From IMG/VR virus record IMGVR_UViG_3300017764_000001: a stretch of 64,000 nucleotides of DNA. One strand, given 5' to 3'. The notes below the pieces were generated by a model. It was given only the letters and a program-made list of their open reading frames with translations, did no database searches and was not told the origin of the DNA. The DNA is from a virus (Duplodnaviria > Caudoviricetes). Shown here piece by piece: positions 21,408 through 62,200 of the stretch. Made by a program: the position numbers and the translations under genes. The first letter of the stretch is position 1; every line of letters begins with the position of its first letter.

Positions 21408-21479
21408 GGGAATGTCGCCTAAAGGTAAAGGCCCTCTGCTTATAACGGAGTGATTTGGGTTCAAGTCCCAACATTCCTA
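21408..21479 (+). tRNA. trnI: tRNA-Ile(TAT)
   Basis: Acceptor GGGAATG/CATTCCT, anticodon arm CTCTG-CTTATAA-CGGAG, T arm TTGGG-TTCAAGT-CCCAA; no encoded CCA. Confidence 0.9.
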
Positions 21480-21482
21480 TTT

Positions 21483-21555
21483 GCTTCCTTAGCAATCTGG
21501 TGAATGCAGCAAACTCATAATTTGCCTAAGGAGAGTTCGATCCTCTCAGGAAGCA
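21483..21555 (+). tRNA. trnM: tRNA with CAT anticodon (elongator Met or Ile2; not initiator-type)
   Basis: Acceptor GCTTCCT/AGGAAGC, anticodon arm GCAAA-CTCATAA-TTTGC, T arm GAGAG-TTCGATC-CTCTC; lacks the three G-C pairs of initiator tRNA. Confidence 0.85.
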
Positions 21556-21614
21556 CCTTAAGTTGGTATTCATAGGTAAATGCTTTTATTAGTATTCATT
21601 GACTAATACCCTAC

Positions 21615-21699
21615 GCGAGTATGGTGGAATCGGTAGACACACCAGACTTAAAATCTGTTGACCATCAAGGTCGTGGGAGTTCAAGTCTCCCTACTCGCA
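21615..21699 (+). tRNA. trnL: tRNA-Leu(TAA)
   Basis: Acceptor GCGAGTA/TACTCGC, D loop GGAATCGGTAGAC, anticodon loop CTTAAAA, long variable arm, T arm GGGAG-TTCAAGT-CTCCC. Confidence 0.92.
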
Positions 21700-42435: not shown

Positions 42436-43126
42436 TGTTATTGTCAAGGGTAAGGTCAAGAGTGTGATTCAGGGTATTGATGATGATCAGGTTCTGATTC
42501 ATTATCATGATACTGTGACTGCCGGTAATGGTAAGAAGAAAGATCATCCGAAAGGTAAGGGTGAAATCAATGCAAAGATATCATCCCTTATCTTTGAACA
42601 ATTAGAACGTGCCACAATTAAAACTCATTTCATACAATCGGCAGGTCCTGGTATTATGAGATGTAAGAAGGTGGATATTATTCCGATTGAGGTTGTTGTT
42701 CGTAATGTCGCTGATGGTTCGATTGTAAGAGACACGACTATTCCAAAGGATACCGTATTCAATCCACCACTGGTTGAGTTCTATCTCAAGGATGATGATA
42801 AGAATGATCCTTTACTTACGGAGGATAGATTAACACTTATGGGGTATACTAATCTAAGAAGAATCAAACAGTATGCAAAGGAGACTAATGCCGTGGTATC
42901 TGATTTGTTTAAAAGAATTGGTATTATATTGATTGATTTTAAACTTGAGTTTGGTACGACTGTCAATGGAGAGATTGTTGTTGCCGATGAGATTAGTCCT
43001 GATGGATGTAGGTTGAGAAATAAGGAGACAAATCAAAGTATGGACAAAGATTTATTCCGTAAGGGTACAGGTGATATTATTGGTGCCTACACTGAAATTA
43101 TGAACAAATTGATTGAAATATGCTGA
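42425..43126 (+). CDS. purC: SAICAR synthetase (phosphoribosylaminoimidazole-succinocarboxamide synthase)
   Basis: KGKVKSV, IIPIEVVVRNVADGS, VEFYLKDD..NDP, LIDFKLEFG, VADEISPDGCRL, DKDLFR. Confidence 0.92.
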   Translation: MPNDVIVKGKVKSVIQGIDDDQVLIHYHDTVTAGNGKKKDHPKGKGEINAKISSLIFEQLERATIKTHFIQSAGPGIMRCKKVDIIPIEVVVRNVADGSIVRDTTIPKDTVFNPPLVEFYLKDDDKNDPLLTEDRLTLMGYTNLRRIKQYAKETNAVVSDLFKRIGIILIDFKLEFGTTVNGEIVVADEISPDGCRLRNKETNQSMDKDLFRKGTGDIIGAYTEIMNKLIEIC

Positions 43127-43222
43127 AATATGATTAAAAAACAATTAAAAAGGTATTTTTAAATATAAAAGTGTTGTTTGTATGCTATTGAGAATCATTA
43201 GCAATAAGGTGTTAGTAACTCC

Positions 43223-43246
43223 GTGGATACTGTGTGAATACTGTGT
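43223..43246. repeat. 11-bp tandem repeat GTG(G/A)ATACTGT
   Basis: Copies at 43223 and 43234. Confidence 0.75.
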
Positions 43247-43367
43247 AGAAACTCCTGAGTAACTTCACAGAAACCTCTCATCCTTATGTGAGTTTAGTCC
43301 GCACGTTATCACACTCGAAGGTTTTTGTCAACAGGGACGGCAGAAAAACTCTGAGATCCACACATTT

Positions 43368-43545
43368 CTCGTCGAGATTGTATAAATACATCTTATGAAT
43401 CTCGTCGAGACATACACTTGACAACTCGACGAGATCATAGTATCATAATCACAGTTCATCAATCTCGACGAGAACCATGTACGACGATTACGATCTCGAC
43501 TATACATTCAATAATGATCATGCATCATCATATGATCTCGACGAG
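43368..43545. repeat. Array of palindromes CTCG(T/A)CGAG
   Basis: Perfect copies at 43368, 43401, 43425, 43464, 43537; partial copy at 43494. Confidence 0.9.
43418..43446 (+). promoter_or_regulatory. sigma70-type promoter with palindrome in the spacer
   Basis: TTGACA-actcgacgagatcatag-TATCAT; TATAAATA late box also at 43381. Confidence 0.7.
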
Positions 43546-43680
43546 ATGTGCGAAGGACACGTATCATATAACATGATACAAGATAGCACATCATATAATG
43601 ACGAGATGACCGCATATGATGATGACGAACATCGTGACGAGCAAGACTATCAAACGCTTGCATATATGCACTACGCATGA
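43477..43680 (+). CDS. Very acidic Tyr/Asp-rich small protein
   Basis: MYDDYDLDY..YDLDEMCEG.. Confidence 0.55.
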   Translation: MYDDYDLDYTFNNDHASSYDLDEMCEGHVSYNMIQDSTSYNDEMTAYDDDEHRDEQDYQTLAYMHYA

Positions 43681-43709
43681 TAGAATAGTCCGAGAATCAC
43701 CTAACCACA

Positions 43710-43862
43710 ATGATTGCACAGAAACGCACAATCCGTGTTATTCTAGACATCGAATGTTACGATGATCTTGATATCGAGGATCAGGATTGGCGTGAGATTC
43801 TGCAGCTCGAAGGTGATGAAGACGTTCATGCTACCATCAAAGATCTGGCAGATATCTTCTAG
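43710..43862 (+). CDS. Small acidic protein (50 aa)
   Basis: Manual: MIAQKRTIRVILDIECYDDLDIEDQDWREILQLEGDEDVHATIKDLADIF. Confidence 0.6.
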   Translation: MIAQKRTIRVILDIECYDDLDIEDQDWREILQLEGDEDVHATIKDLADIF

Positions 43863-43890
43863 TTTGTGCCAGTTCGTAGATTGGTTTTTT

Positions 43891-43919
43891 ATTCTCAATA
43901 GTGAGTCCTTATTGAGAAT
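43891..43919. repeat. Palindrome ATTCTCAATA-N9-TATTGAGAAT, copy 1
   Basis: Perfect 10-bp arms. Confidence 0.9.
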
Positions 43920-43936
43920 AGAAGTCTTTAAAAAAA

Positions 43937-43992
43937 CCAGTTGGAGAACTGGCACAGAACCCCTTGTGGATTCGTCCGTGAGGGGTTATGTT
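43937..43992 (+). promoter_or_regulatory. Early promoter cassette 8a
   Basis: CCAGTT-N4-AACTGGCACA; TTGTGG..TATGTT. Confidence 0.6.
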
Positions 43993-44016
43993 GTATCTGT
44001 CGTTAGGAAATTCTCC

Positions 44017-44151
44017 ATGTTTGATGAACTCTGGTCTGAGATTGCTGATGCTCCCGGTGAGATCTTCGATGTCATCGAATACAAGGAAGAATGGGAGAAG
44101 GAAGAGAAATTCGATGTTGAGAAGTACATCAACGGAGACACTGATTACTGA
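44017..44151 (+). CDS. Small acidic protein (44 aa)
   Basis: MFDELWSEIADAPGEIFDVIEYKEEWEKEEKFDVEKYINGDTDY; C-terminal part of track ORF 43762. Confidence 0.6.
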   Translation: MFDELWSEIADAPGEIFDVIEYKEEWEKEEKFDVEKYINGDTDY

Positions 44152-44426
44152 TGTCCTTCATTTCAAACTTCATCAATCAAACTATGAACGAATCTGATCT
44201 TTTCACTCTCAAAGAAAACTATGCCAACATGATTATCGATGACATGGATATTGATACGTTGGCACAATTTGCCTACGATTCAATCATGGACAATCTGAAA
44301 GATTATGAAGAGACAGATTTGGAGGCAGAAATCACCGATCTTTATGGTGAAGAAACTTACAATGATTTGGCAGACGTTGATACCATCAACGTTTCGTATG
44401 GTGATACGCTGAGACCCGCAAGTTAG
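44151..44426 (+). CDS. Acidic hypothetical protein
   Basis: ORF track. Confidence 0.6.
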   Translation: MSFISNFINQTMNESDLFTLKENYANMIIDDMDIDTLAQFAYDSIMDNLKDYEETDLEAEITDLYGEETYNDLADVDTINVSYGDTLRPAS

Positions 44427-44428
44427 TC

Positions 44429-44457
44429 ATTCTCAATATACATTTATTATTGAGAAT
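44429..44457. repeat. Palindrome ATTCTCAATA-N9-TATTGAGAAT, copy 2
   Basis: Same arms as copy 1, different 9-nt spacer. Confidence 0.9.
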
Positions 44458-44468
44458 CGCAGCTGCCG

Positions 44469-44526
44469 GTGGACAGTTGAACAACCTACACACAAAATGG
44501 GCACAGACCCCAAAATCGTGTATTGT
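44469..44526 (+). promoter_or_regulatory. Early promoter cassette 8b
   Basis: GTGGACAGTT-N4-AACCTACACA, 28 nt, TATTGT. Confidence 0.55.
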
Positions 44527-44532
44527 GGATAC

Positions 44533-44712
44533 ATGAACAAAACACAACTCTTTTCTGACTCAAATCTCTCCGAACTTCAGGGTTTCATGTTTGACACAAT
44601 GGCATCATCAGAAATGGCAGTCGATTGGTTCTGCGATCGTTTCAATGTTAATGCAGATGATGATATCATTGATTTCGTCCTTGATGCACACTTTGCGTTC
44701 TTCGGAGAGTAA
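44533..44712 (+). CDS. Small hypothetical protein
   Basis: MNKTQLFSDSNLSELQGFMF...; start moved downstream of the promoter. Confidence 0.6.
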   Translation: MNKTQLFSDSNLSELQGFMFDTMASSEMAVDWFCDRFNVNADDDIIDFVLDAHFAFFGE

Positions 44713-44747
44713 CACTAACTCCTTTCGTTCTTCATTCACACTTTCTC

Positions 44748-44879
44748 ATGCGTATCTTCCTTGCTTCGATTGTCATCATCCTGGGTGCCAATCTTCTCAT
44801 CGATCTGTTGGATTCCGACCTGGTGGATGTAATGCAGGAGCGTCGGGAAACTATAGAGAAACAAATGGATCGGATGTGA
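44748..44879 (+). CDS. Small protein with hydrophobic N-terminus (43 aa)
   Basis: Manual: MRIFLASIVIILGANLLIDLLDSDLVDVMQERRETIEKQMDRM. Confidence 0.5.
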   Translation: MRIFLASIVIILGANLLIDLLDSDLVDVMQERRETIEKQMDRM

Positions 44880-44932
44880 CAGTCGGCAAGGTGTCCACTT
44901 TTTTGGCACAGCACCCCGTTTCCGTGTATCTT
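44876..44932 (+). promoter_or_regulatory. Early promoter cassette 9
   Basis: GTGACAGTC-N4-AGGTGTCCAC, 28 nt, TATCTT. Confidence 0.6.
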
Positions 44933-44989
44933 AGAGAAGTGGAGGGGAGCACACCCCACCACGACCCCAGTCCTTTCACTTCAATTTCA

Positions 44990-45313
44990 ATGCGTAAGAT
45001 CGAAAAGCAAATGAACGACGCAGTTGCAAACAATGAGAATTGGACATCTGCAAACACGACTGTTACTTTCGATTCCGAAACTAATGAGTCTACCGTGTAT
45101 CTCCACGGTAATAAAATTGCAGAGGTTGGTGATGACTTCCTTCGTGTTTTTGACGGTGGATGGCAAACAAACACAACAAAGTCCCGTCTCAATGCACTGA
45201 TCGAACGTTTTTGTGATGCGTTCACTGACAGCGTTTATCAGCACAAATTTGAGTGGTTCATCACTGATGACAAGAACATTTACAAGTTCGTTAACGGTTA
45301 CACGTTCTCCTGA
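44990..45313 (+). CDS. Conserved phage hypothetical protein
   Basis: MRKIEKQMNDAV..VYLHGNKIAEV..DGGWQTNTTKSRLNALI; real start lies inside track ORF 44591. Confidence 0.7.
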   Translation: MRKIEKQMNDAVANNENWTSANTTVTFDSETNESTVYLHGNKIAEVGDDFLRVFDGGWQTNTTKSRLNALIERFCDAFTDSVYQHKFEWFITDDKNIYKFVNGYTFS

Positions 45314-47832: not shown

Positions 47833-48234
47833 ATGGCGGTAACACGGATATCTAGAGTATTCAAGGACATTAGTTTGTCCTTTGAACCTCATCCAATCAC
47901 TAATGATCTACCAATTTTAAAGAATGAATCGGCAATTCGTCGTTCTGTAAGGAATGTCGTACAGACAATACCTACTGAAAAGTTTTTTAATAGTGTATTT
48001 GGGTCTGATGTCTATAAAAGTCTGTTTGATTTTGTAGATTTTGGTACTGCTGCGATCATTAAAGACCAAATTATCACTGCAATTAAAAATTTTGAACCTA
48101 GAGTAGAGAATGTCAGGGTCATAGTGGACCCATCACCAGATGAAAACTCATTTGAGGTTACAATATTTTTTGATATCATAGGACAAGAGTTCCCAACACA
48201 AGAATATTCATTCATATTAGAGGCAACGAGATAA
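47833..48234 (+). CDS. gp25: Baseplate wedge subunit
   Basis: FKDISLSFEPHPITNDL..AIRRSVRN..EKFFN..I..AIKNFEPRV. Confidence 0.9.
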   Translation: MAVTRISRVFKDISLSFEPHPITNDLPILKNESAIRRSVRNVVQTIPTEKFFNSVFGSDVYKSLFDFVDFGTAAIIKDQIITAIKNFEPRVENVRVIVDPSPDENSFEVTIFFDIIGQEFPTQEYSFILEATR

Positions 48235-48238
48235 TAAA

Positions 48239-50206
48239 ATGCCTTTTACTAAGTTTACAAACCTAGATTTCGATCAAATCAAGACATCCATTAAGGATTA
48301 TCTTCGTGCAAACTCCGATTTTACAGATTTTGACTTTGAGGGGTCTAATTTTTCGGCACTGATCGATACACTAGCATATAATACTTACATTACTGCATTC
48401 AATTCTAATATGATTGTGAACGAATCCTTCTTGGATTCGGCAACAGTTAGACAGAATGTAGTTTCTCTTGCCGGAAATATTGGTTATGTTCCAAGATCAA
48501 AGACTGCATCAAAAACAACCGTCTCTCTTAGGACAGTTTTAACTACTGATGAAAATGATACGAATATTGAGACTGTCACATTGAATAGTGGTGTTTTTTC
48601 AACCGGAAGTTCAAATGATACATCTTTCGTTTTTTCCACAATAGAGGACATAGAGGGAAAAATAGAAAAAGAAAGTGGTGTTGGTAGAGTTGCATATTTT
48701 GATAATATTACCATCTATCAGGGAACATTATTAAGAAAGAACTTTATATATGATGGATCTTTAGATCAAAAATTTATTTTAAATAACTCAGATATAGATA
48801 CGACTAGTGTATCGGTTTATATTAGTGATTCTGAAACTGAAAAAGGATTTAAATATGTTCCTGTAGAAAATATCCTGAATGTAACAAAAGATTCAAGAAT
48901 ATATTTTATAAGAGAAATACAAGATGAAAAATATGAAATAAGATTTGGTGATGGTATATTTGGAAAGAAACTCGGTGATGAAGGTGGTACTGACGGCAAA
49001 TATATTACCGTAGAATATTTAATTACTGACGGTAAGGTTGGTAATGGAGTTAATAAATTTACTTATGCAGGATCACTTAAAAATCAAAATGGTGCAATAT
49101 TAACACCAACAGAGGTTGATGCAATAAAAGGTGAAAAGGTCAGTGATGAAGTATATAATGAAATTGTAAAATCTCAAAATGGTAATGATATTGAAGGAAT
49201 TGATTCGGTTCGTTATTTTGCTCCAATTACGTATTCTGCACAAAATCGTGCCGTTACCCCAAGAGATTATGAGGCAATTATTAAAAGAATATATCCAGAC
49301 GCAGAGTCGATGTCTATTGTTGGAGGAGAAGAATTAGATCCTCCAGAATTTGGAAATGTAATTATTAGTATTAAACCAAAAGGTGGTACATTTGTTAGTG
49401 ACTTTAATAAAAAACAAATACTATCTAAACTTAGACAGTATTCTGTTTCTGGTATCAATCAAAGGATAATTGATCTTAAGATACTTTATGTCGAACTAGA
49501 TTCAAGTGTTTATTTTAATGAATCTTATACTTCAACAGTGTCGGCATTACAATCTCAAGTATTGAATAAACTTACTGAATATTCCAAATCAACAAACTTT
49601 AATAAATTTGGGGGTAGATTTAAATATAGTAAATTGCAAAATATAATTGATGAAACTGATAGAAATGCAATTACATCAAATATTACTAAAATAAAAATTA
49701 GAAGAAATTTAAAAGCTTCAATTAATCAGGTTGCACAATATGAATTGTGTTTTGGAAATGAATTTCATGTAAGAAAAGAAGGTCGTAATATAAAATCTAC
49801 AGGATTTAATGTTTTTGGAGAATCATCGACCGTTTATTTTACAGATGTTCCAAATGAAGATGAAAAAACAGGAATACTTCAAATTGTGAAATTAGTTGGT
49901 AATGATCAGAAAAGAATTGTAAAGTCTTCTGCCGGTACAATTGATTATATTAAAGGTGAAATAATAGTTGATACTGTAAATATTACTTCTACCATAAAAC
50001 CAGACAATATTATTGAAATTGAATCTGTTCCTGAATCTAATGATGTTGTTGGACTGAAAGATTTATATCTATCTCTTGATGTTTCAAAAAGTAGAATAAA
50101 TATGTTAAGAGATTTAATTTCTTCTGGGGATGAAATATCTGGAGTGAAATTTATCGAAGATTCATTCACCTCAAGTTATTCAAACGGAAGCATAATAAGA
50201 AACTAA
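48239..50206 (+). CDS. gp6: Baseplate wedge subunit
   Basis: LDFDQIKTSIKDYLRANSDFTDFDFEGSNFSALIDTLAYNTY..ESFLDSA; AQNRAVT..DYEAII. Confidence 0.92.
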   Translation: MPFTKFTNLDFDQIKTSIKDYLRANSDFTDFDFEGSNFSALIDTLAYNTYITAFNSNMIVNESFLDSATVRQNVVSLAGNIGYVPRSKTASKTTVSLRTVLTTDENDTNIETVTLNSGVFSTGSSNDTSFVFSTIEDIEGKIEKESGVGRVAYFDNITIYQGTLLRKNFIYDGSLDQKFILNNSDIDTTSVSVYISDSETEKGFKYVPVENILNVTKDSRIYFIREIQDEKYEIRFGDGIFGKKLGDEGGTDGKYITVEYLITDGKVGNGVNKFTYAGSLKNQNGAILTPTEVDAIKGEKVSDEVYNEIVKSQNGNDIEGIDSVRYFAPITYSAQNRAVTPRDYEAIIKRIYPDAESMSIVGGEELDPPEFGNVIISIKPKGGTFVSDFNKKQILSKLRQYSVSGINQRIIDLKILYVELDSSVYFNESYTSTVSALQSQVLNKLTEYSKSTNFNKFGGRFKYSKLQNIIDETDRNAITSNITKIKIRRNLKASINQVAQYELCFGNEFHVRKEGRNIKSTGFNVFGESSTVYFTDVPNEDEKTGILQIVKLVGNDQKRIVKSSAGTIDYIKGEIIVDTVNITSTIKPDNIIEIESVPESNDVVGLKDLYLSLDVSKSRINMLRDLISSGDEISGVKFIEDSFTSSYSNGSIIRN

Positions 50207-50207
50207 T

Positions 50208-53200
50208 ATGATACAGACAGGATTTGAAACACGGATAAAGATACAAAACATTGTATCAAGTCAACTCCCTAATTTTATATTAGATGAAAGTCCTAAAACA
50301 GTAGACTTTCTGAAACAATATTATATTTCACAAGAGTATCAAAGTGGACCTATTGATTTATCGACTAATCTAGATCAATATCTGGATTTAGATAATCTTA
50401 TTCCTGAAGTTGTAGTTGATAGTACAACTATCACTGGAGATGTAACATCTAGTGATTCTATAATAAATGTATCCAACACTAAAGGATTTCCTCAAGAATA
50501 TGGATTATTAAAAATTGGTAATGAAATTATTTCATATACAGGAATAACAACAAATTCTTTTACTGGTTGTATTCGTGGATTTAGTGGAATTAGTTCATAT
50601 AGAACAGATTCTGATAATGAAGAAATAGTTTTTACAAAAGCATCTGCAGAATCTCATAGTTCAAATTCCTCTGTTCAAAATTTAAGTAGTTTATTTTTAA
50701 AAGAGTTTTATAAAAAATTCAAAACAACTTTTGCTCCAGGATTAGAAAATAATAATTTTGTATCAACACTGAATGTTGGTAATTTTCTCAAAGAAATAAA
50801 ATCCTTCTATCAGAGTAAAGGAACGGATGAATCATTTAGAATTTTATTTGAAATTTTATACGGAGATTCACCAACAGTAATAAATTTAGAAGAAAATTTA
50901 ATTAAACCATCTTTTGCAGAATATAGAAGAAGAGAAGTTGCCATAGCAAAGGTTATCTCAGGAGAAGCATCTTTTCTTAAAGGACAGGGGTTATTTAAAG
51001 AAAATTCAAATATAGTAGCATCGATTTCAGATATATCTCCATTTTCAATTGATAATGAAATTTTTTATAAGTTATTTCTTTTTGTTGGATATGATGAGGA
51101 TTCTGATATCCAAGGAAGATTTTTATCGACTCCAAATTCAAAATGTACAGAAGATGTTCAGACTAATGCATCAATTATAAATGTCGATTCTACAATTGGA
51201 TTTGGAGCTACAGGATCTTTAAGATCAGGATCTAATGTCATTTCATATACTGATAAGACTGTAAATCAATTTTTAAACTGTGAAGGAGTTACAACTTCCA
51301 TATCTCAAGGAGATTTGGTTCATGATAAGCAAATTTATTATGGATATGAAAATGGGGATATTAATAAAAAAGTAGAATTGATATTTTTTACTACTTTAAG
51401 TAATTTTATTCCAGATGGGAATGTAAATATCAATGAAAATGATCCCATTGGAATAAAAAATCTCGGTGATAAAGTAATTAATCCTTTACAGAATAAATCT
51501 CCAAAACAAATATTAGCAAATTCTTGGATTTATAATACCAATTCTTCTTATTTTATTAGTAATTATGATACCGGCACTCTTGAACTTTTTTCAAAAATTG
51601 ATAAGTCTAGTTTAAAATTAGGTGATTTTGTTGAAATTGTTGAAAGAGATACTGGAAAGGTAATATTTCCTGATGATAGTAATAATCCTTTTGTAGCACT
51701 TAATGGACAAGAAATTCAAGAAAAGAAAAGTGTAACTTTAGATGGTGGTTTTAATCAAGATAAATTGGGTATTACCACTGACTTTAATTTAAGAAAAATA
51801 TTAAATAAAGCTAACATTGGATCTCAAAGTAATGTATCATTTAAATATGGAAACAAAAGTTTAATATCAGATATTCAAAATGTTTATTTTGATGATGAAT
51901 ATGCTTATGTTGCATCAAACTCATTACCATCAGCTAAAACAAGAAAAGGAACGACAGGATTTCCTTTTTCGGAAGATATTGATATAAAAATTAAAAAATT
52001 AGTAATAGATCTTGATAATCAAATTGGTGGAATTTTAACTTCATTCAATGAATTAACTCAAGAGTTTAGTGCCATAGAGATAAGAGATAATCTTGGTAAA
52101 TCTGTATTTAAAACTGGTGACAAGATTTTTTATCAACCACAGGGAGATGTTTTAGTTGGATTAGAAACCGGAAACTATTTTGTTGAAGTAATTGATGGTG
52201 CTGGTTTTAATGATCAAATAAAATTATATGGATCTAATTATCTTATTGGAACTGAAAATCATTTGACTTTATCTGGTGCAGGAACACATACAATTACATT
52301 AGAGTCTCAAAAGTCTGGAATAATTGGACCACAAAAATTACTTAAAAAGTTTCCAATTAAACAACAGTTAGTAGATGGAAATAAAGAAGAAACTATTCCT
52401 GGTGGAATAGGTTTATTGATAAATGGGGTTGAAATAACAAACTATAAATCTGTAGATAAAGTATATTATGGACCTTTAAAGAAAATTAATGTCTTGAATG
52501 GTGGAGAAAATTTTGATGTTATTAATCCACCAAAAATTGTCATTGAATCTGGATTAGGAAACACTGCTCTTGCTCAACCGGTTGTTTCTGGATCTATAGA
52601 GGAAGTTCTTATAGATTTTGATACTTATAATTTTAATATTGATAAAGTTATATCGATAAGTGTAACAGGAGGAAATGGATCTGGGTGTGTTCTTGAACCA
52701 TCTATTTTAAATACTTTTAGGGAAGTTGAATTTGATGCTAGGATAGCAGATGTTGGAGGAGGAATCAATACTATTACAAATCAAATTATATTTGATGTAG
52801 AACATGGTTTTATTAGTGGACAAGAAGTTATCTATGATTCTAATTTAGGCGTTCAAGTTGGAATTCAAACTATAGGTAGTGGTGGTAAATCTAATTTGGT
52901 AAATAAATCAACATATGTTGTAGATGTAACCAATAATGTCTCTATAAGATTGCATGAAAATTTTGATGATTATAGTGCTGGTATTAATACAGTTAGTTTT
53001 ACCGGAGCAACAGGATCTGGAATTCAAAAAATAAAGATAGGTCCATTGAATGTACTAAAAGATATTGTTGTAATTAATCCTGGTGAAAGATATACTAATA
53101 AAAAATTAATTGTCACATCATCGGGAATATCTACAGAGTATGATTGGATTCAATTTGAAAATCATGGATTTAATAATGGTGACTTAATAGATTATTCTAT

Positions 53201-56200
53201 TGCATCTGGTGATGGAACATCATCTCCACAGGTTATATCCGGATTATCAACTAATAAAAAATATCAAGTACTTAAAATTGATAACAATAAATTTAGACTA
53301 TGTGATGCTGGTATTGGTGGAACTATAACTGATAATTTTATCAGAAAAAATTATGTTAAAATAAATGAATCTTCTGGAACCGGATATCAGCAATTTAGTT
53401 ATCCTCCAATCAATGTAGATTTTAGATTTTCTACTGTTGGATTGGGTACAACTAGCGAACAATCTATAACACTTACTCCAATAGTGAAAGGATCTATAAC
53501 TTCTGTAGATTTATATGATAAAGGAGCAGGATATGGATCTTCTATCATAAATTATGAAGATAAACCAACAATTTCTATTCAAAACGGAAAAGATGCAAGA
53601 GTTCTTCCCATTATATCAAATGGAAGAATAGATTTTATCAATGTTGAATATGGTGGAGAAGATTATTATTCAGTTCCAGATGTTGTTATTACAGATTCTT
53701 CTAAATCTGGTTCTGGATGTGTTTTGAGAGCCATAATAAAAAATAATAAATTAGATTCTGTTAAAGTTATCAAATCTGGGATTGGTTATTCTTCTGCGGA
53801 TACTTCTATTTCCATAGTATCCTCTGGAATTAATCAGGTTTTAGATTCTGAAATAAGAGATTTAACAATTATAACCAACGAAATTTTTGAATCAAACAAA
53901 CTTTTGATTGATAATGATGATAATGAGTTAAAATATTCTGTATGTGGATATGATGTAGATCTATTCTCAGATAGTAACGATTCTATATCAGGAATTATTG
54001 GATGGGCATATGATGGAAATCCCATATATGGTCCATATGGATCAAAAGATCCTAATGAATTTACTACTCCTAGCACATTAGTTTCTGGATACACAAAGAG
54101 TGCAGCATCTGTTATTGATAGACCTTCAACAGATGATTTTGCAGAAGGATTTTTTGTAGAGGATTATCAATATGATGGAACAAATGCAGATTTAGATGAA
54201 CATAATGGTAGATATGAAAAAAATAAAGATTTTCCAAACGGTGTCTATGCATATCATGCAGTAGTTGATATAAAATCAAAAGGTAATGCACCATTGTTTC
54301 CATTCTTTATTGGTAACTCATTTAGATCCAAAAAAATAGCAGAAAACTTCCAGTTTGATTTTGATCAATCATATGATTTTAATAATTCAACTTTACAGAG
54401 AAATACTTTACCATATAACACGAATGAACCTTTTGCAGATAATTTTTTCATAAAAATTAAAAAAAATCAAAAAATAAACGTAGATAAAACAACATCTGGA
54501 AATATAAACAACATATCCATAGTTAATGGTGGAGAAAATTTTAAAATAAATGACATTATTAAATTTGATAATAGGGAAACTAATGGAAGTGGTTTAAATG
54601 TAAAGGTTTCTTCTTTGAAAGGAAAAGAGATAACAAAAATAGATACGGTAGGCATAACTAACAATGCTGTTTTAACATGGGGAGGAAGTAAGATAAAAGT
54701 TACGATTGACACTGAACATGATTTTAAGAATGGTGATTATATATCGTTATCGGGAATATCTACAGATTCTTTAAAAAGATTAGAAAAATATCATAGAATA
54801 ACAGTTCAAGATAATTCTACATCTAGAACAATATCCTCAATTTCTGCGGGGGCAGCATCAACTGAAATATTTGTATCATTCATTCCAAATTATGTTTCTA
54901 CAGGGTCTACAATTGGTATTGGAGATGAGCAATTAACAGTATTAAATGTATTTGAAAATTTAAACGTTTTAAGAGTATTAAGAGGATCTCCGGGAGTATC
55001 TCATACCGAATCCTCTTTAGTGAACTATAATACAAAATTATTTACAGTTGATGGAGAGTTCCCTTTCTTTGATTCAAAAAATAATAATCAAGTGCGTTTC
55101 AATGCCGCAGAGTCTGTAGGATTAGGAACTACATCGGGAACGGGATTTTCTACATCATTTATATTTGGTTCATCTACGGTCTCTAGAGAAATCCCAACAA
55201 GAGGTATATACTTAGAAAATCATCCATTTAAAACAAATCAATTAATAAGATTAACAAATCCTACACTTAGAAAACTTATTGTTTATTCTTCTGGTCCTGA
55301 TGGTGTTTTATCAGATCTTATCAATGGAAATTATTATGCTGTAAATAAATCCAAAAATGTCATAGGAATTAAAACTGGTATAGGTAGTAGTGAAGTATAT
55401 TTCAGAGGATTTTCAGCATCTGGAGATACTGGAAATGATGATAGATATCTTTTTGAATCTATATTTGATCAAGTAACTTCCAATGTAAAATCTATTAAAA
55501 CAACCATTTCAGTATCTACATCTCATGATCTTAAAAAGAATGATATAGTCAAATTAAATATTGTTCCAAATCTTTCTGTTGGAATTGGAACAACAGCATC
55601 ATCTGTGGTTGTTAAGGTAGATAATATAACGAAACAAATTCTAATAAATCCTGTTGGGTTTAATTCTTCAAGTATTAACACTACAACAAATCAAATATCT
55701 TTAATAAATCATGAGTTCAAAACTGGAGATAAAGTAAGATATACAGCACCTGAGGTTGCATCTGGATTAGATACCGGAGGATATTTTATTTTAAAGGTTG
55801 ATGATGATAATATTAAACTTGGAAAAGTATATTCTGATGTAATATCAATTAATCCAAAAATTGTTAGTATAGGGGCAAGTGGAGGAGAACTTCATACATT
55901 ATCATTGATTAATCCTGAACTGAAAGTAACCAAAAATAATAATCTTTCTTTTAATCTATCAGATTCTTCATTAAGTGGATATGAATTTAAGATTTATCAT
56001 GATCAAGATTTTAAAAATGAATTTGTATCTACAGGAAATACAACATTATTTACTATTTTAAGCAGTGGAATAAATGGAACAGTAGGAGCATCTCTGACAG
56101 TTTATTCTGATAATAATTCTCCAACTTCTTTGACTTATAATATAGAAAAATCTGGATATATTAGTACTTCTGATAAAGAGGTTAAAAATTATTCTACTAT

Positions 56201-59200
56201 TATTTTTGAAAATAGTAAATATAATAAAGAATTTAAAGTTTCTTCCGGAGTTGGAGTAACTACTTTTAATTTATATCTAGAAGATGATCCAGAAAGATTT
56301 TCATATCTTCCTTCAGAATGTGAAATACTTGAATATTCCACTACATCTAAAAATGCAAAAGGGGGTATAGATTCTTTAAATATTATATCCTCAGGAAGTG
56401 GTTATAAAAAACTTCCATCTGTTGTTGGATCTTCATCGACAATAGCAGAAAATGAACTAATTACTATCTCTTCTAATAAAGTTGGAAATATCAGAGATAT
56501 TGATATTATCAATGATGAATTTAAATATTACACTGACAATACATTAAGACCAACAGCTTCACTTCCAAGTATTTTGGAAGTGAAGAATGGAAATACTATT
56601 AATTCTATTTTAGTAGAAGATCCTGGTGAGGGCTACTTTAGTGCTCCTAGTTTAGTATTAGTTGATAAAGTCACGGGAGAAAAACTTAATACTGGTTTCT
56701 TAGAAGCTAATTTTGATGGAGCCATATCAAGTGTATCTATCTTAGAGGAACCAAAGGGACTTCCAGATAATGGTGTTGTTGTAAAATCAATATTTAATAC
56801 AAATGGATTTACAATTGATACAATTGATTCTACTGTTGGAACTGGTATCACATGTACTTTAGTTACACCAATTTCTGGATTTAGTACGGCACCATTTAAA
56901 GTTGGTGATGAAATATATGTTGAGGGAATATTAAAAAGTAGCAATGATGGAACAGGACATAATTCTGAAGATTATGGATATAGATTCTTTAAAATAAAAT
57001 CTATACCGGATCCTTTAGCTAATCCAAATCCAAATCCATTTAAGGTTGAATTTGATGTAGTTGGATTGACAACCAATACAGGAATAGCAGTTACTATATC
57101 GAATGGATTTGGTAGAATAATACCTAAAAGTAAATATCCATCTTTTGAAGTAGTTTTAAACTCATCTCCATTCGTACCTGGAGAGAAAGTTAATGTTAAT
57201 GGGACACAAAAAAATATAGAAGTTGTTAGATCAACTGAAGGTGAACTTGTTCTGTTTGGTTCTGATAGTGAAATATTAAAAATAGGTGATAAAATTACAG
57301 GAAGAGGATCCTTAACTTCTGCAGAAATTAATAAGATAAATGAAAATAATGGAACTTTTGATGTAGATTTTTCATATAAAACTAATATAGGATGGGAGGA
57401 CTCAGTAGGGAAATTAAGTGTTGATCATCAGGTTATTCCAGATAATGATTATTACCAAAATTTATCATATTCTGTACGAAGTAATCAAACTTGGAAAGAA
57501 ATAAAATCACCCGTTGGCAGACTTGTTCATACTTCAGGATTGAAAAATTTCTCCGATACTCAAATTATATCGGATGCAAAAACTAGTGTTGGTTCTTCAG
57601 AACAATCAATTTCAATTAGTGACACTATTGATGAATCTAGAGTTGATATTCTTAGAGGGATAGATCTTGCTAGAGATGATGAATCTAATGGAGAAGTTTC
57701 AAATTTCTTACAATTCAACAAAACTAGATTTGTTAACTTTGTTGACTGCAAAACAAATAATGTTCTTCCTATTGATAACATAAATCAACAATTTTCTAAT
57801 TTAGAATCTGATCCCGATAGATTTTTGAATCTTGATATTCTCGACACATCAGTAAGATATGATAATTATCTAATTAGAATTGAAAGTTTTGCACATGATG
57901 AAAAGCAATTGCAACTTTCGGAGTTTGTACTGTTATCTAATGGAATAGATCAAACTTTGTTTAGTAAATCAGAATTAACTAACTCTGGAATAGCTTTTAC
58001 TACTTTTGCTGAAGATAAATTTGGAGAATATGTAATAGAGACAAATACTGAAGAGGATCTTTCTTATCTTAGGTTTGTACCAAATGATCCAAATAATATT
58101 GACTATGATTTAAAATTTATTAAAACAAGTACCATTAGTGGCACTGGTATAGGAACACAAAGTTTTGGATTTATTGATTTAGTATCATCAAATAAAACTG
58201 CCAATACAGGAATAACAACAACGATATTTTCAAAAAATATAGATGAAATAGAATCTGCATATATTGTCACCAAGGTTATCAACTCCTCTACAAAAGAAAT
58301 GAATTTTGTGGAAACATATGTGACTCATGATGGAACTGATACTTATATTTCTGAATATTTTGTTGATGCTGGAGGTGAAACTCTTAATAATAGAATAGGT
58401 CTCTCAACTGCTTCTATTAGTAATAATCAATTAGTATTTTTATATGAAAATGATACTAGTGATACTATACAAATTAGATCTAAGATAGTTGGATTTGGTA
58501 CAACTAGTTCTGGAAATGGTGAATATAGATATTTGGTTGATGGTCAAACTGCTGAAACTGAGAGAACAGCAAAATATGAGGCATCTTTTAAAGTTGGTGT
58601 TGGAACAACTGCAATATTCTCAGGTTATCCTTTAACTTTTGATGCTGTTAAATGTAATGTTGAAGTAAGTAGTGCAGGAACTTCAAAGGCACTTCATCAA
58701 ATAACTGCTATACATGATGGAACCAATGCATATTTACAGCAATCTCAATTCCTTGCAAATAATTATGATTCCACATTGGGATTAGGAACATTTAGTGCAA
58801 CATATAGTGCAAGTAACTTTATTGTTAATTTCCATCCTGAAGATACTACAGGTATTACAACCGTTAAAACTTTCAATCAAGTTTTTTACAAAAATATAGA
58901 TGAAAATAATGATCCAAATGATTTAATTTATGGAAATATAATTGAAAGTGCGGAATTTAAATTCTATAATGCGATTAATGGAAACAGAATAAACAGAAAA
59001 CAGTTTGACTTAAAAAATAATAATATTGATATATTTAAAAAGACTTTTAATCCTTCAGTTGCAATTACTTCGTCCATAGTAGATGTTGGAATTGCATATA
59101 GTGCATTTAACATCAAGAATCATTTCTTTAGAACTGGTGAGGAATTAATTTATACTCCCAAATCTACATTTGTTGGAGTTGGATCAACACCAATGCAGTA

Positions 59201-62200
59201 TACTATAGATGGTTCTGCGATTGGGATATTAACATCTAGAGTTTTTGCAATAAGGCATGATGATAATGAATTTGGTATTGCAACAACTAAAGCACATGCT
59301 AATTCTGGAATAGGTATCACAGTTAAATCTTTTGGAAAGGGAAATGCTCATACATTTGAAATGGTTAAGTCAAATGAAAAAGCATTAATGGCAATTGACG
59401 GTATTGTTCAAACTCCAATAGCCAATACAAACATTACACATACTGTAAATAATAATCCTGTTTCTGGAATATCAACAGTTCAAACTACTTTTGCTTTAAG
59501 TGGAATTTCTTCCATAAGTGTCATCAACATTCTTAAAGTTGAAGAAGAATATATGAGAGTTGAAAATGTTGGTATTGGAACCTCTTCTATAGGACCTATC
59601 ACACCAGGAATAGGAACATTCAATCTGGTAACTGTTGAAAGAGGTGCAGTCGGTAGTTCTGCTACTTCTCATGCAAATGGATCAGTTGTTGAACTCTATA
59701 AAGGAAATTATAATATAGTTGATAGTAAAGTTCATTTTATTGAAGCACCTAGAGGAAATCCTCAGGGTCAAGATAAAAATGGATTACCATTCTCAAGATC
59801 TGTATTTAACGGTAGAGTTTATCTAAGAAATAATTATACCGGTAACTTCTTATATGATGATATATCAGATCAATTTACAGGAATAACATCAGAATTTAAT
59901 TTAACTGTTAATGGAGAAAATGTTACCGGTATAGGGACTAGTGGTGGACAAGGTGTATTATTCATTAACGGAATATTCCAGACACCAGAAACTGATAATA
60001 ATCCTCAACAAAATTATCAAATTATTGAAGATTTAACAGCAGGTATAACGACAGTTAAATTTACTGGAATGTATGTAAATGATATTGAACAAGATTTTAT
60101 TAGTGAATCTGATGTAAACGTAAATCAAATTCCTAGAGGTGGACTACCAATTAGTATTGGATCTACTGAAGGACTTGGATATGCTCCTTTGATAGGTGCA
60201 AAACTTCGTCCTGTAGTTGTAGGAGGTGTCATAACCGATGTTGTTGGTGTTGCTACAACAGGTTCATCTTTTGGAATTACAACAGCAGCATATAACAAGA
60301 CAACGGGTATTTTATCAGTTACCACTAATACAGATCATGGATTAGTATTTGGAAATCAAAGTAAAGATGAAGTGAGATTAGTTGGTTTAGAGTTTGATTG
60401 TCCACCAGGATCTGGAATTACAACAACAATATATCCGGAGAATGGTCCTAGAAATTATCAACTTGTTGGTGTTTCTTCTGCACAGACATTCCAAATAAAT
60501 GTTGGAACTAGTACAATTACACATAATTATGTTGGAAGTGGAACTGTGACACAGTTTTTCCCAGATCTAAGTTTTGGTTCTGGTTATAATGGAATTGTTT
60601 CTGTTTCAGTTGCGGTTACAGAATCTGGGCATTCGGGGACTGCTGCCGTAATAACTGGAGCACCTGTTGGATTTAACACACATAGATTTGTCAGTGCCAC
60701 AGCAGGAATTCAAAAATCTGGAAGTCCTGCAATTCAACCTGGAGATGGAACATCTTATGATCCTAGAGTTGGAATTCTAACAGTTGCAGCTGCATCTCAC
60801 GGACTTTCTACTAATGATTTGGTAACAATTGAAGATGGATCTTTAATATTCTCCTGTGCTCAAGATAGTTTCCAAACTTTACATGCATATCCAAGAAGCA
60901 CTGATTACATATCAGGAGTTTCCACTGCTATCACTAAAGTAAATAATGATAAATTTACAGTATTTGTTGGAACATCTCCAGCACATGGTGGAGGAGCACT
61001 AAAATTCACTATTTCCAATGGTGGAACAGGTTATAGTGATCCTGAAATATTTGTCTCCGAACCATCGTATGAAAATCTTTCTGTAGTAGGTATTTCTAGA
61101 AGAGGAATTGGTTCTACTACTGATACTGGAGTTGGATTGAAAATTGATGTCATACCAACTCCAAGTTCAGATTATACTGGAATAGGATCAGAATTATTTG
61201 AAGTATCTCAATTTAAAGTTAGCACTCCTGGATATGGATTCTTACCTGGAGATGAATTTAAAGCAGTTGGATTAGTTACTTCTAGATTTATAGAGTCCTT
61301 GATAAAAGAATTTAAAATGGAGGTCACAGAAGCATTCAGTGATGCATTCTCACTTTGGCAGTTTGGTGAATTTGATTACATTGACTCCATTAAACCATTA
61401 CAAAATGGCAGAAGAACTAGATTCCCATTAAAATATGAAAATGAAATAATTAGTGTTGAAGCTAATGATGCTTTTGATGTTGAATTAAATCCAATTTTAT
61501 TAATCTTTAGAAATAGAGTTATTCAAGAACCAGGAAAAACTTATGAATTTGTTGGAGGAACAACGGTCAATTTCAAAATTGCTCCAAGAATTGAAGATGA
61601 CATACACATTTTCTTCTATAAAGGAACCGATGGTGAAGATTCTGTTATAGTTGATGCTCCACCCAAACCAATTGAACTTGGTGATGAAGTGAAAGTTATG
61701 TCAAAACCAAATCAAGATGACCGATTAGTATCTGACTTTACTCAATCAGATACCATTAGAACAAATTCATATAGAGGTTTAGGTATAACAACAGAGTTTA
61801 AACCAGTCGAAGTTACAAGACAAAAAGATGATTTAATTCTTGATGGTAGATTAATTAGTAAATCTAGAGAGTTATTGGAACCTAAAATTTTCCCAACGGC
61901 AAAAATAATTTATGACGTTAATTCTACTGATGGACAGTTTTTTATAGATAATGTTGGTAGGTTATTCCATTATGAAAATGATTCATCGTCTTATGATGTA
62001 AGAATTGTTTCTGGAGAATCTAACCCAGTAGCATCTGCAGTAACAGCGACTGTTTCTGCAGCAGGAACGATAACAAATTTAACTATCGTAAGTGGTGGAT
62101 CTGGATATGAATCTATTCCTACATTAAAAATACAGGCACCTCCTACACAGATAGGTGTTGGTGTTGGAACCACAGCAACTGGTACAGTTACAATTAGTAA

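Follow-up and report, generated by a model that had tools for sequence, protein, structure and literature searches.

Perfect palindromes beside an immediate-early module of a marine T4-like cyanophage as candidate operators for host Fur

The window analysed here, a 64-kb stretch of viral DNA (64,000 nucleotides), contains two perfect copies of the palindrome ATTCTCAATA-N9-TATTGAGAAT, which we regard with moderate confidence as high-affinity operators for host Fur, serving iron-dependent control, insulation or Fur titration. Through these sites, the phage probably reads or manipulates the iron status of its host. We infer Fur binding to the palindromes, and its effect, from Fur-box sequence identity, shared geometry, the pattern of conservation and genomic placement. 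The window belongs to the genome of a marine T4-like cyanomyovirus whose nearest isolates are Synechococcus phages (e.g., S-SKS1), and its DNA occurs in seawater and viral metagenomes. Elsewhere in the window, positions 48001-60000 have a G+C content of 0.27-0.31 compared with 0.34-0.44 in the rest, and three tRNA genes stand in a row at 21408-21699.

Palindromes in the early region of the window

PAL1 occupies positions 43891-43919 and PAL2 positions 44429-44457 (no strand assigned to either). Inspection of the sequence alone had reported exact arms at both places, the spacers gtgagtcct and tacatttat, and a lone right arm TATTGAGAAT at 43186-43195 (likewise without strand); all of these are confirmed. 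The same reading placed both palindromes just 3' of a stop codon, and the distances bear this out: PAL1, the candidate Fur operator 3' of a 50-aa acidic ORF (43710-43862, plus strand), starts 29 nt past its stop, and PAL2 starts 3 nt past the stop of a 91-aa ORF assigned to Pfam DUF7326 (44151-44426, plus strand). A genome-wide scan, which had been proposed as a check, finds the exact 10-mer five times in the 64 kb, in every case within the 1.3 kb between 43186 and 44457. With one mismatch allowed, 15 copies are seen against 14.7 expected, which is chance level, and thus only the exact copies stand out. The relaxed pattern TTCTCAAT-N9-13-ATTGAGAA gives two matches in the window and none in 100 dinucleotide-preserving shuffles of it.

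The palindromes stand among early transcription signals and small genes. A TCTCGWCGAGA array with a strong sigma-70-like promoter (TTGACA-17-TATCAT, 43418-43446) lies at 43367-43546 (no strand assigned); in relatives, this is the module with palindromes on either side. The first gene of the flanked module is a 67-aa acidic ORF (43477-43680, plus strand), with homologs in 43 of 119 loci among the matches listed. The 50-aa ORF serves as the anchor of synteny, having a homolog in 95 of the 119 palindrome contigs among the matches listed. Past PAL1, the first gene is a 44-aa acidic ORF (44017-44151, plus strand), and past PAL2 comes a 71-aa ORF (44497-44712, plus strand) whose true start may be the ATG at 44535. 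A 38-nt promoter-leader block at 44489-44526, which contains GGGCACAGACCCCAAAATCG, recurs twice in relatives (L026 and L096) and coincides with a breakpoint of module shuffling. On the plus strand, PAL1 is framed by a left flanking dyad with a T-run (TGTGCCAGTT..TTGG, 43865-43890) that pairs with a right flanking dyad (CCAGTT..AACTGGCACA, 43931-43956), the latter lying 11 nt past PAL1 and belonging to the next early promoter cassette.

Unlike in classical Fur repression, PAL1 and PAL2 lie outside the predicted -35/-10 elements, which counts against a Fur operator: no hexamer pair overlaps either palindrome, and the nearest promoter-like -35 lies 44 nt past the end of PAL1 and 12 nt past the end of PAL2. 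As separate promoter candidates, the TTGAGA of the right arm was rejected as a -35 element because no -10 follows at 17 nt, and the TGGCACA flanks were rejected as sigma-54 promoter marks on spacing.

As RNA, the palindrome stem alone would reach -8.7 kcal/mol; it is AU-rich, has only two G-C pairs and is followed by no T run. The intrinsic terminator scan calls neither PAL1 nor PAL2. Neither combines a GC-rich stem with a U tract. The sequence-only reading had noted the lack of both a GC stem and a U tail. This holds insofar as PAL1 has no trailing U tail, but it overlooks that a T6 run on the left and an A7 run on the right frame PAL1, which lies at the apex of an imperfect hairpin of 99 nt (43862-43960; -43.4 kcal/mol, z -8.3) built from the two flanking dyads and these runs. 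PAL2 has no such frame. No Rfam family reaches its gathering score in the window, the cyanobacterial loci or the phage loci; below threshold, only miRNA-precursor models match the long hairpin.

Correspondence with cyanobacterial Fur boxes

Searching the literature for the arm strings returned mostly primers, and the sole relevant match is a study of FurA (Gonzalez et al. 2014, PMC4005646). According to this work, the FurA box of Anabaena PCC 7120 has the consensus AAATAAATTCTCAATAAAT, derived from eight DNase I footprints, the boxes of the furA promoter itself contain ATTCTCAAT, and FurA binds its own promoter in gel shifts (PMC4005646). The phage arm together with the first spacer base (ATTCTCAATAA) equals positions 7-17 of the Anabaena consensus at 11 of 11 positions. 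The correspondence extends to geometry. The furA promoters of Nostocales have ATTCTCAAT-N11-GTTGAGAAA, in the tail-to-tail arrangement of the phage palindromes, and in Pseudanabaena the site reads TTCTCAA-N13-TTGATAA. Across 121 cyanobacterial genomes, TTCTCAA-N13-TTGAGAA is present in 24, compared with 10 for the reversed control pattern, and in 12 of the 24 loci examined it ends 8 nt before a FurA ortholog.

The picocyanobacterial host family, to which genomes of Prochlorococcus size and marine Synechococcus size belong, shows the same arrangement. An inverted repeat of the palindrome type precedes 21 of 29 primary fur genes, commonly as TCTCATTA-N8-TATTGAGAA, and sits ~60-130 nt upstream of fur (loci L335-L363); it is kept over a GC range of 0.29 to 0.72. 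On this sequence evidence, we regard it as a candidate auto-operator. A pattern search of host-type genomes also returned near-perfect copies (ATTCTCAATAGCAA...TGTTGAGA) ~70 nt upstream of a gene for a Crp-family regulator, which adjoins a ferritin gene or a gene of the PSII-antenna type, an iron-cluster context. The recognition helix of Fur is nearly identical between Anabaena (SLSTIYRTLKL) and marine-size genomes (SLATIYRTLRL). Neither the window nor the viral loci encode a Fur homolog, and therefore the reader of the palindromes would be that of the host.

Set against the cyanobacterial FurA box and furA operator (PMC4005646), the phage copies share the core ATTCTCAAT(A), the tail-to-tail inverted geometry and the combination of retained arms with a variable spacer. 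They differ in being perfect and invariant palindromes, more symmetric than any host site seen, and in standing at gene ends, beside rather than over core promoters. The spacer also counts against the Fur assignment, being mostly 9 nt in phages (with 8 and 10 as well) and mostly one base shorter, 8 nt, at the picocyanobacterial fur promoters.

A further reservation concerns which member of the Fur family would bind. The same heptamers in head-to-head 7-1-7 order precede znuA/znuC, COG0523, TonB and TonB-dependent receptor genes. Perfect TGAGAAT-N-ATTCTCA occurs just upstream of such genes at five loci from diverse cyanobacteria (L252, L261, L266, L275 and L276). These perfect 7-1-7 palindromes are a signature of a Zur/Fur-type regulon, and the signature differs from the RegPrecise Zur motif quoted in PMC9337993. 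The half-site is thus a general word of the Fur family, which makes the paralog Zur a possible alternative reader and weighs against Fur as the specific one. The 7-1-7 form is absent from the znuA loci of two marine-size genomes and is thus not universal.

Conservation in relatives and alternative readings

The exact 10-9-10 palindrome is present in at least 119 uncultured viral contigs (IMG/VR), most of which are relatives of this phage. Long contigs carry one to three copies per genome, 500-750 bp apart, and one complete 213-kb genome carries two. Among the matches listed, the palindrome is found only beside one conserved immediate-early module, in the same syntenic places; it is present too in unrelated phage types, without the genes of the module. 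We oriented all palindrome loci on the homolog of the 50-aa gene, which yields a stereotyped map. A palindrome, often with a third arm after it, lies ~700 nt upstream of the stop of the 50-aa gene, followed by the TCTCGWCGAGA promoter array, the 67-aa and 50-aa genes, and a TGTGCCA..TGGCACA dyad overlapping the stop codon of the latter. The second palindrome, often preceded by an extra arm, lies 25-70 nt past the 50-aa gene and is followed by the dyad of the next early promoter cassette. The distance between palindromes and the upstream dyad of the next early cassette is 2-17 nt. Lone arms recur at fixed positions in relatives, and the lone arm of the window is a decayed form of the upstream palindrome that many relatives keep. 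PAL2 represents a third positional class with a conserved right flank of its own.

Among cultured phages, the palindrome is missing from P-SSM2, Syn9, S-PM2, P-HM2, S-CRM01, S-SKS1 and S-T4. S-SRM01 carries a single imperfect copy, in the upstream position, and DSL-LC03 a single copy, at another place, whose spacer is 8 nt long. In S-SRM01 (L121:2403-3066), 54 nt separate the end of an HNH endonuclease gene from the imperfect upstream palindrome that follows it. At four loci (L009, L010, L228 and L223), a conserved element of ~60 nt, beginning with ATTTTATGGCAGG and ending with CTCTCCCCT, is found just past the palindrome or the empty site; no Rfam family matches it, and it may be a structured leader.

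In more than 100 contigs the arms do not vary, while spacers and flanks do. Copies with perfect arms have spacers of 9 (127 copies), 10 (18 copies) or 8 nt (1 copy). The spacers of the two window copies had been called unrelated, and across the IMG/VR copies spacers do differ widely; within each positional class, however, they are related and so not fully free. To distinguish a site read as sequence from one read as structure, compensatory and invariant arm changes were to be compared in relatives, and among 46 distinct imperfect copies the changes are one-sided in all, comprising 47 pair-breaking and 19 wobble changes. Arm positions 2-7 are almost invariant, and positions 8-10 break freely. 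Such one-sided, uncompensated changes indicate that the sequence itself is read and not pairing alone. Invariant arms, non-compensatory variants and the match to the box of a known regulator together support the initial preference for sequence-specific protein recognition over a plain terminator.

The same data bear on the reading of the palindrome as an RNA hairpin on early transcripts, where it would stabilise 3' ends, mark a processing site or act as a factor-dependent terminator, read by a sequence-specific RNA-binding protein. Its placement is suitable, since every copy closes a transcription unit, just past a stop codon; loops of 8-10 nt occur, and PAL1 tops the 99-nt hairpin. A strand bias points the same way. 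Read on the sense strand, the spacer begins and ends with A..T in 26 cases, G..T in 18 and A..C in one, and wobble mismatches in the arms number 16 on the sense strand compared with 3 on the antisense strand, counts that lineage sharing may inflate. A symmetric DNA site does not predict this bias towards G.U-compatible pairs, which speaks against Fur, keeps an RNA or single-strand role alive, and is the reason that we retain the hairpin as an option. Nevertheless, the weakness of the stem and its missing U tract, the lack of any compensatory change, the free breakage of pairs 8-10 alongside invariant positions 2-7, and the use of the same words as DNA operators before fur genes make it an unlikely explanation overall. 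RNA-library contigs covering 42800-45300 (two runs of one study plus two other runs) run through both palindromes, which is weak evidence against the hairpin: these contigs show neither transcript ends nor strand, and breaks near PAL1 could stem from the assembly graph.

The pattern of presence and absence in relatives raises the question of mobility, i.e., of a selfish or deletion-prone micro-palindrome, similar to a REP or the core of a MITE, that moves among cyanobacteria and phages by means of a transposition enzyme and has no regulatory function for the phage. In a sample of loci gathered through the 50-aa protein instead of the palindrome, and hence unbiased, 13 of 32 loci carry the downstream site with at most one mismatch and the other 19 lack it altogether, with no intermediates. 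What separates a filled from an empty site is a clean indel of ~29-33 bp (L224 vs L221; L228 vs L223; PAL2 of the window vs its closest relative, L049). A site that is perfect in some relatives and cleanly missing from others, the pattern expected of a mobile or deletion-prone palindrome, counts against a Fur operator. Between L214 and L215 (1526-1554 in both), the whole 29-bp palindrome is flipped in place with collinear flanks, and the single arm mismatch moves to the opposite arm. A flipped element would also suit a mobile palindrome, although any short inverted repeat commonly gives rise to small inversions, as in the hairpin inversions of plastids.

Copies in cyanobacterial genomes bear on mobility as well. 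In 185,579 species genomes scanned, 86 stretches hold the exact palindrome; of the 80 listed, at least 70 are cyanobacterial, and these span many orders. There, the palindrome sits in low-copy repeats, with one to seven copies per genome. Its perfect copies lie at the centre of MITE-like repeats in many cyanobacteria, a position that favours the mobile reading and is odd for a regulator site. In Leptolyngbyaceae/Leptothoe, the repeat is a MITE-like element of ~250 bp (L125:2880-3130, with aligned copies L151, L152, L153, L159, L169 and L190) with terminal inverted repeats (CCCACATTCCGC...GCGGAATGTYGG) and the palindrome at its centre. Its arms hold TGGCACA / TGTGACAGTT words, like the promoter dyads of the phage, and two copies from one genome (L152 vs L159) have the spacer in opposite orientations. 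Clustering of the genes around 80 cyanobacterial copies reveals no recurrent enzyme gene; an IS4-type transposase (Microcystis) and a Fic/AAA island (Nostocales) were considered as partner genes and rejected as local contexts only. With no transposase or HUH enzyme recurring beside the palindrome, no evident target duplication, arms that equal a regulator half-site at single-copy promoters, and one to three copies per phage genome always in the same syntenic places rather than dispersed, we assign a low probability to a purely mobile element.

Similarly improbable is an operator for some other DNA-binding protein with Fur-like specificity, encoded by the phage or the host. Confinement of the sites to one module would suit a local autoregulator. 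However, the products of the flanked module are very acidic, small proteins with no DNA-binding family among them, and the palindrome also occurs in unrelated phage types and cyanobacteria that do not have the genes of the module. The non-T4 phage contigs with the palindrome share no DNA-binding protein among its neighbours.

A site for site-specific recombination or shuffling, by which a module between two copies is excised, inverted or exchanged, is highly improbable: copies do flank small gene modules, the three-arm units upstream and downstream mirror each other, the closest relatives differ in the genes that lie between copies, and PeSL cassettes of T4-type phages mediate such shuffling (PMC2839356), but breakpoints relative to the closest relatives (43990-44035, 44183 and 44489) fall in promoter-leader cassettes outside the palindromes, the arms are only 10 bp with spacers of unfixed length (8, 9 or 10 with perfect arms), no joints appear in the RNA-library contigs over 42800-45300, and no recombinase is among the neighbour genes scanned. 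The earlier suggestion of a recombinase-type site bracketing 43920-44428 is likewise not supported: the palindromes of relatives bracket the upstream promoter/67-aa/50-aa module instead. The likeness to PeSL cassettes (PMC2839356, PMC4122927) is superficial. Both place a stem-loop by an early sigma-70-like promoter between small genes of a hyperplastic region, and both have shuffled gene content between copies; PeSL stems, however, are GC-type terminators in many copies with recombination at the stems, whereas here two or three AT-rich, invariant copies are found and the breakpoints lie elsewhere.

A possible iron-responsive control of early genes

Among the options raised at the outset, a second regulator is the one that fits, with host Fur as the candidate. 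In the proposed mechanism, each palindrome would act as two inverted ATTCTCAAT half-sites placed tail to tail, as in the operators before cyanobacterial fur. In an iron-replete cell, metal-loaded Fur would occupy the palindromes, which close one early transcription unit after another at the 3' end and abut the upstream dyad of the cassette that follows. Most economically, bound Fur would then dampen the adjacent cassette by hindering whatever uses the upstream dyad, or would block read-through from the strong immediate-early promoter at 43418-43446. In an iron-starved cell, Fur would leave and expression of the downstream early genes would rise. Sites this perfect and invariant would also suit selection for the highest affinity, such as a roadblock or a Fur decoy would undergo. 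Under the decoy reading, idealised Fur operators on a replicating genome would soak up host Fur, switching on an iron-uptake and iron-sparing regulon that feeds phage production; in a milder form, the early programme would be timed to host iron. We consider this possibility rather doubtful. In the FURTA laboratory assay, multicopy Fur boxes titrate Fur, and by the same principle high-affinity Fur boxes on replicating phage DNA could sequester Fur and derepress iron-uptake genes. We know of no natural phage Fur decoy of such a kind.

Control of phage genes by host metal sensing has precedents. DtxR acts at the tox operator of corynephage beta, and Fur acts at the stx1 promoter of Shiga-toxin phages. 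As proposed here, both are cases of a host iron-sensing repressor with a palindromic operator on phage DNA. In contrast, those operators overlap the promoter of a single late or lysogenic-conversion gene, whereas two to three sites here flank an immediate-early module of a lytic T4-like phage. Cyanophages also carry Pho boxes before pstS, and NtcA sites, and are known to sense phosphate and nitrogen through the regulators of the host. These sites likewise couple cyanophage expression to host nutrient status via binding sites for host transcription factors. However, they serve phosphorus or nitrogen; for the palindromes, the nutrient would be iron, the regulator another one, and the target genes are not auxiliary metabolic genes. 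The combination of a cyanophage with a Fur box was not found in the literature searched.

Over large areas of the ocean, iron is limiting for picocyanobacteria, whose mortality is due in large part to T4-like cyanophages. If Fur binds the palindromes, the outcome of infection would depend on host iron status through a defined and mutable DNA element. The perfect palindromes would then also offer a convenient probe for the Fur regulon, so far poorly defined, of marine Synechococcus and Prochlorococcus. The comparison delimits, at the level of sequence, a conserved putative Fur-type operator before picocyanobacterial fur genes.
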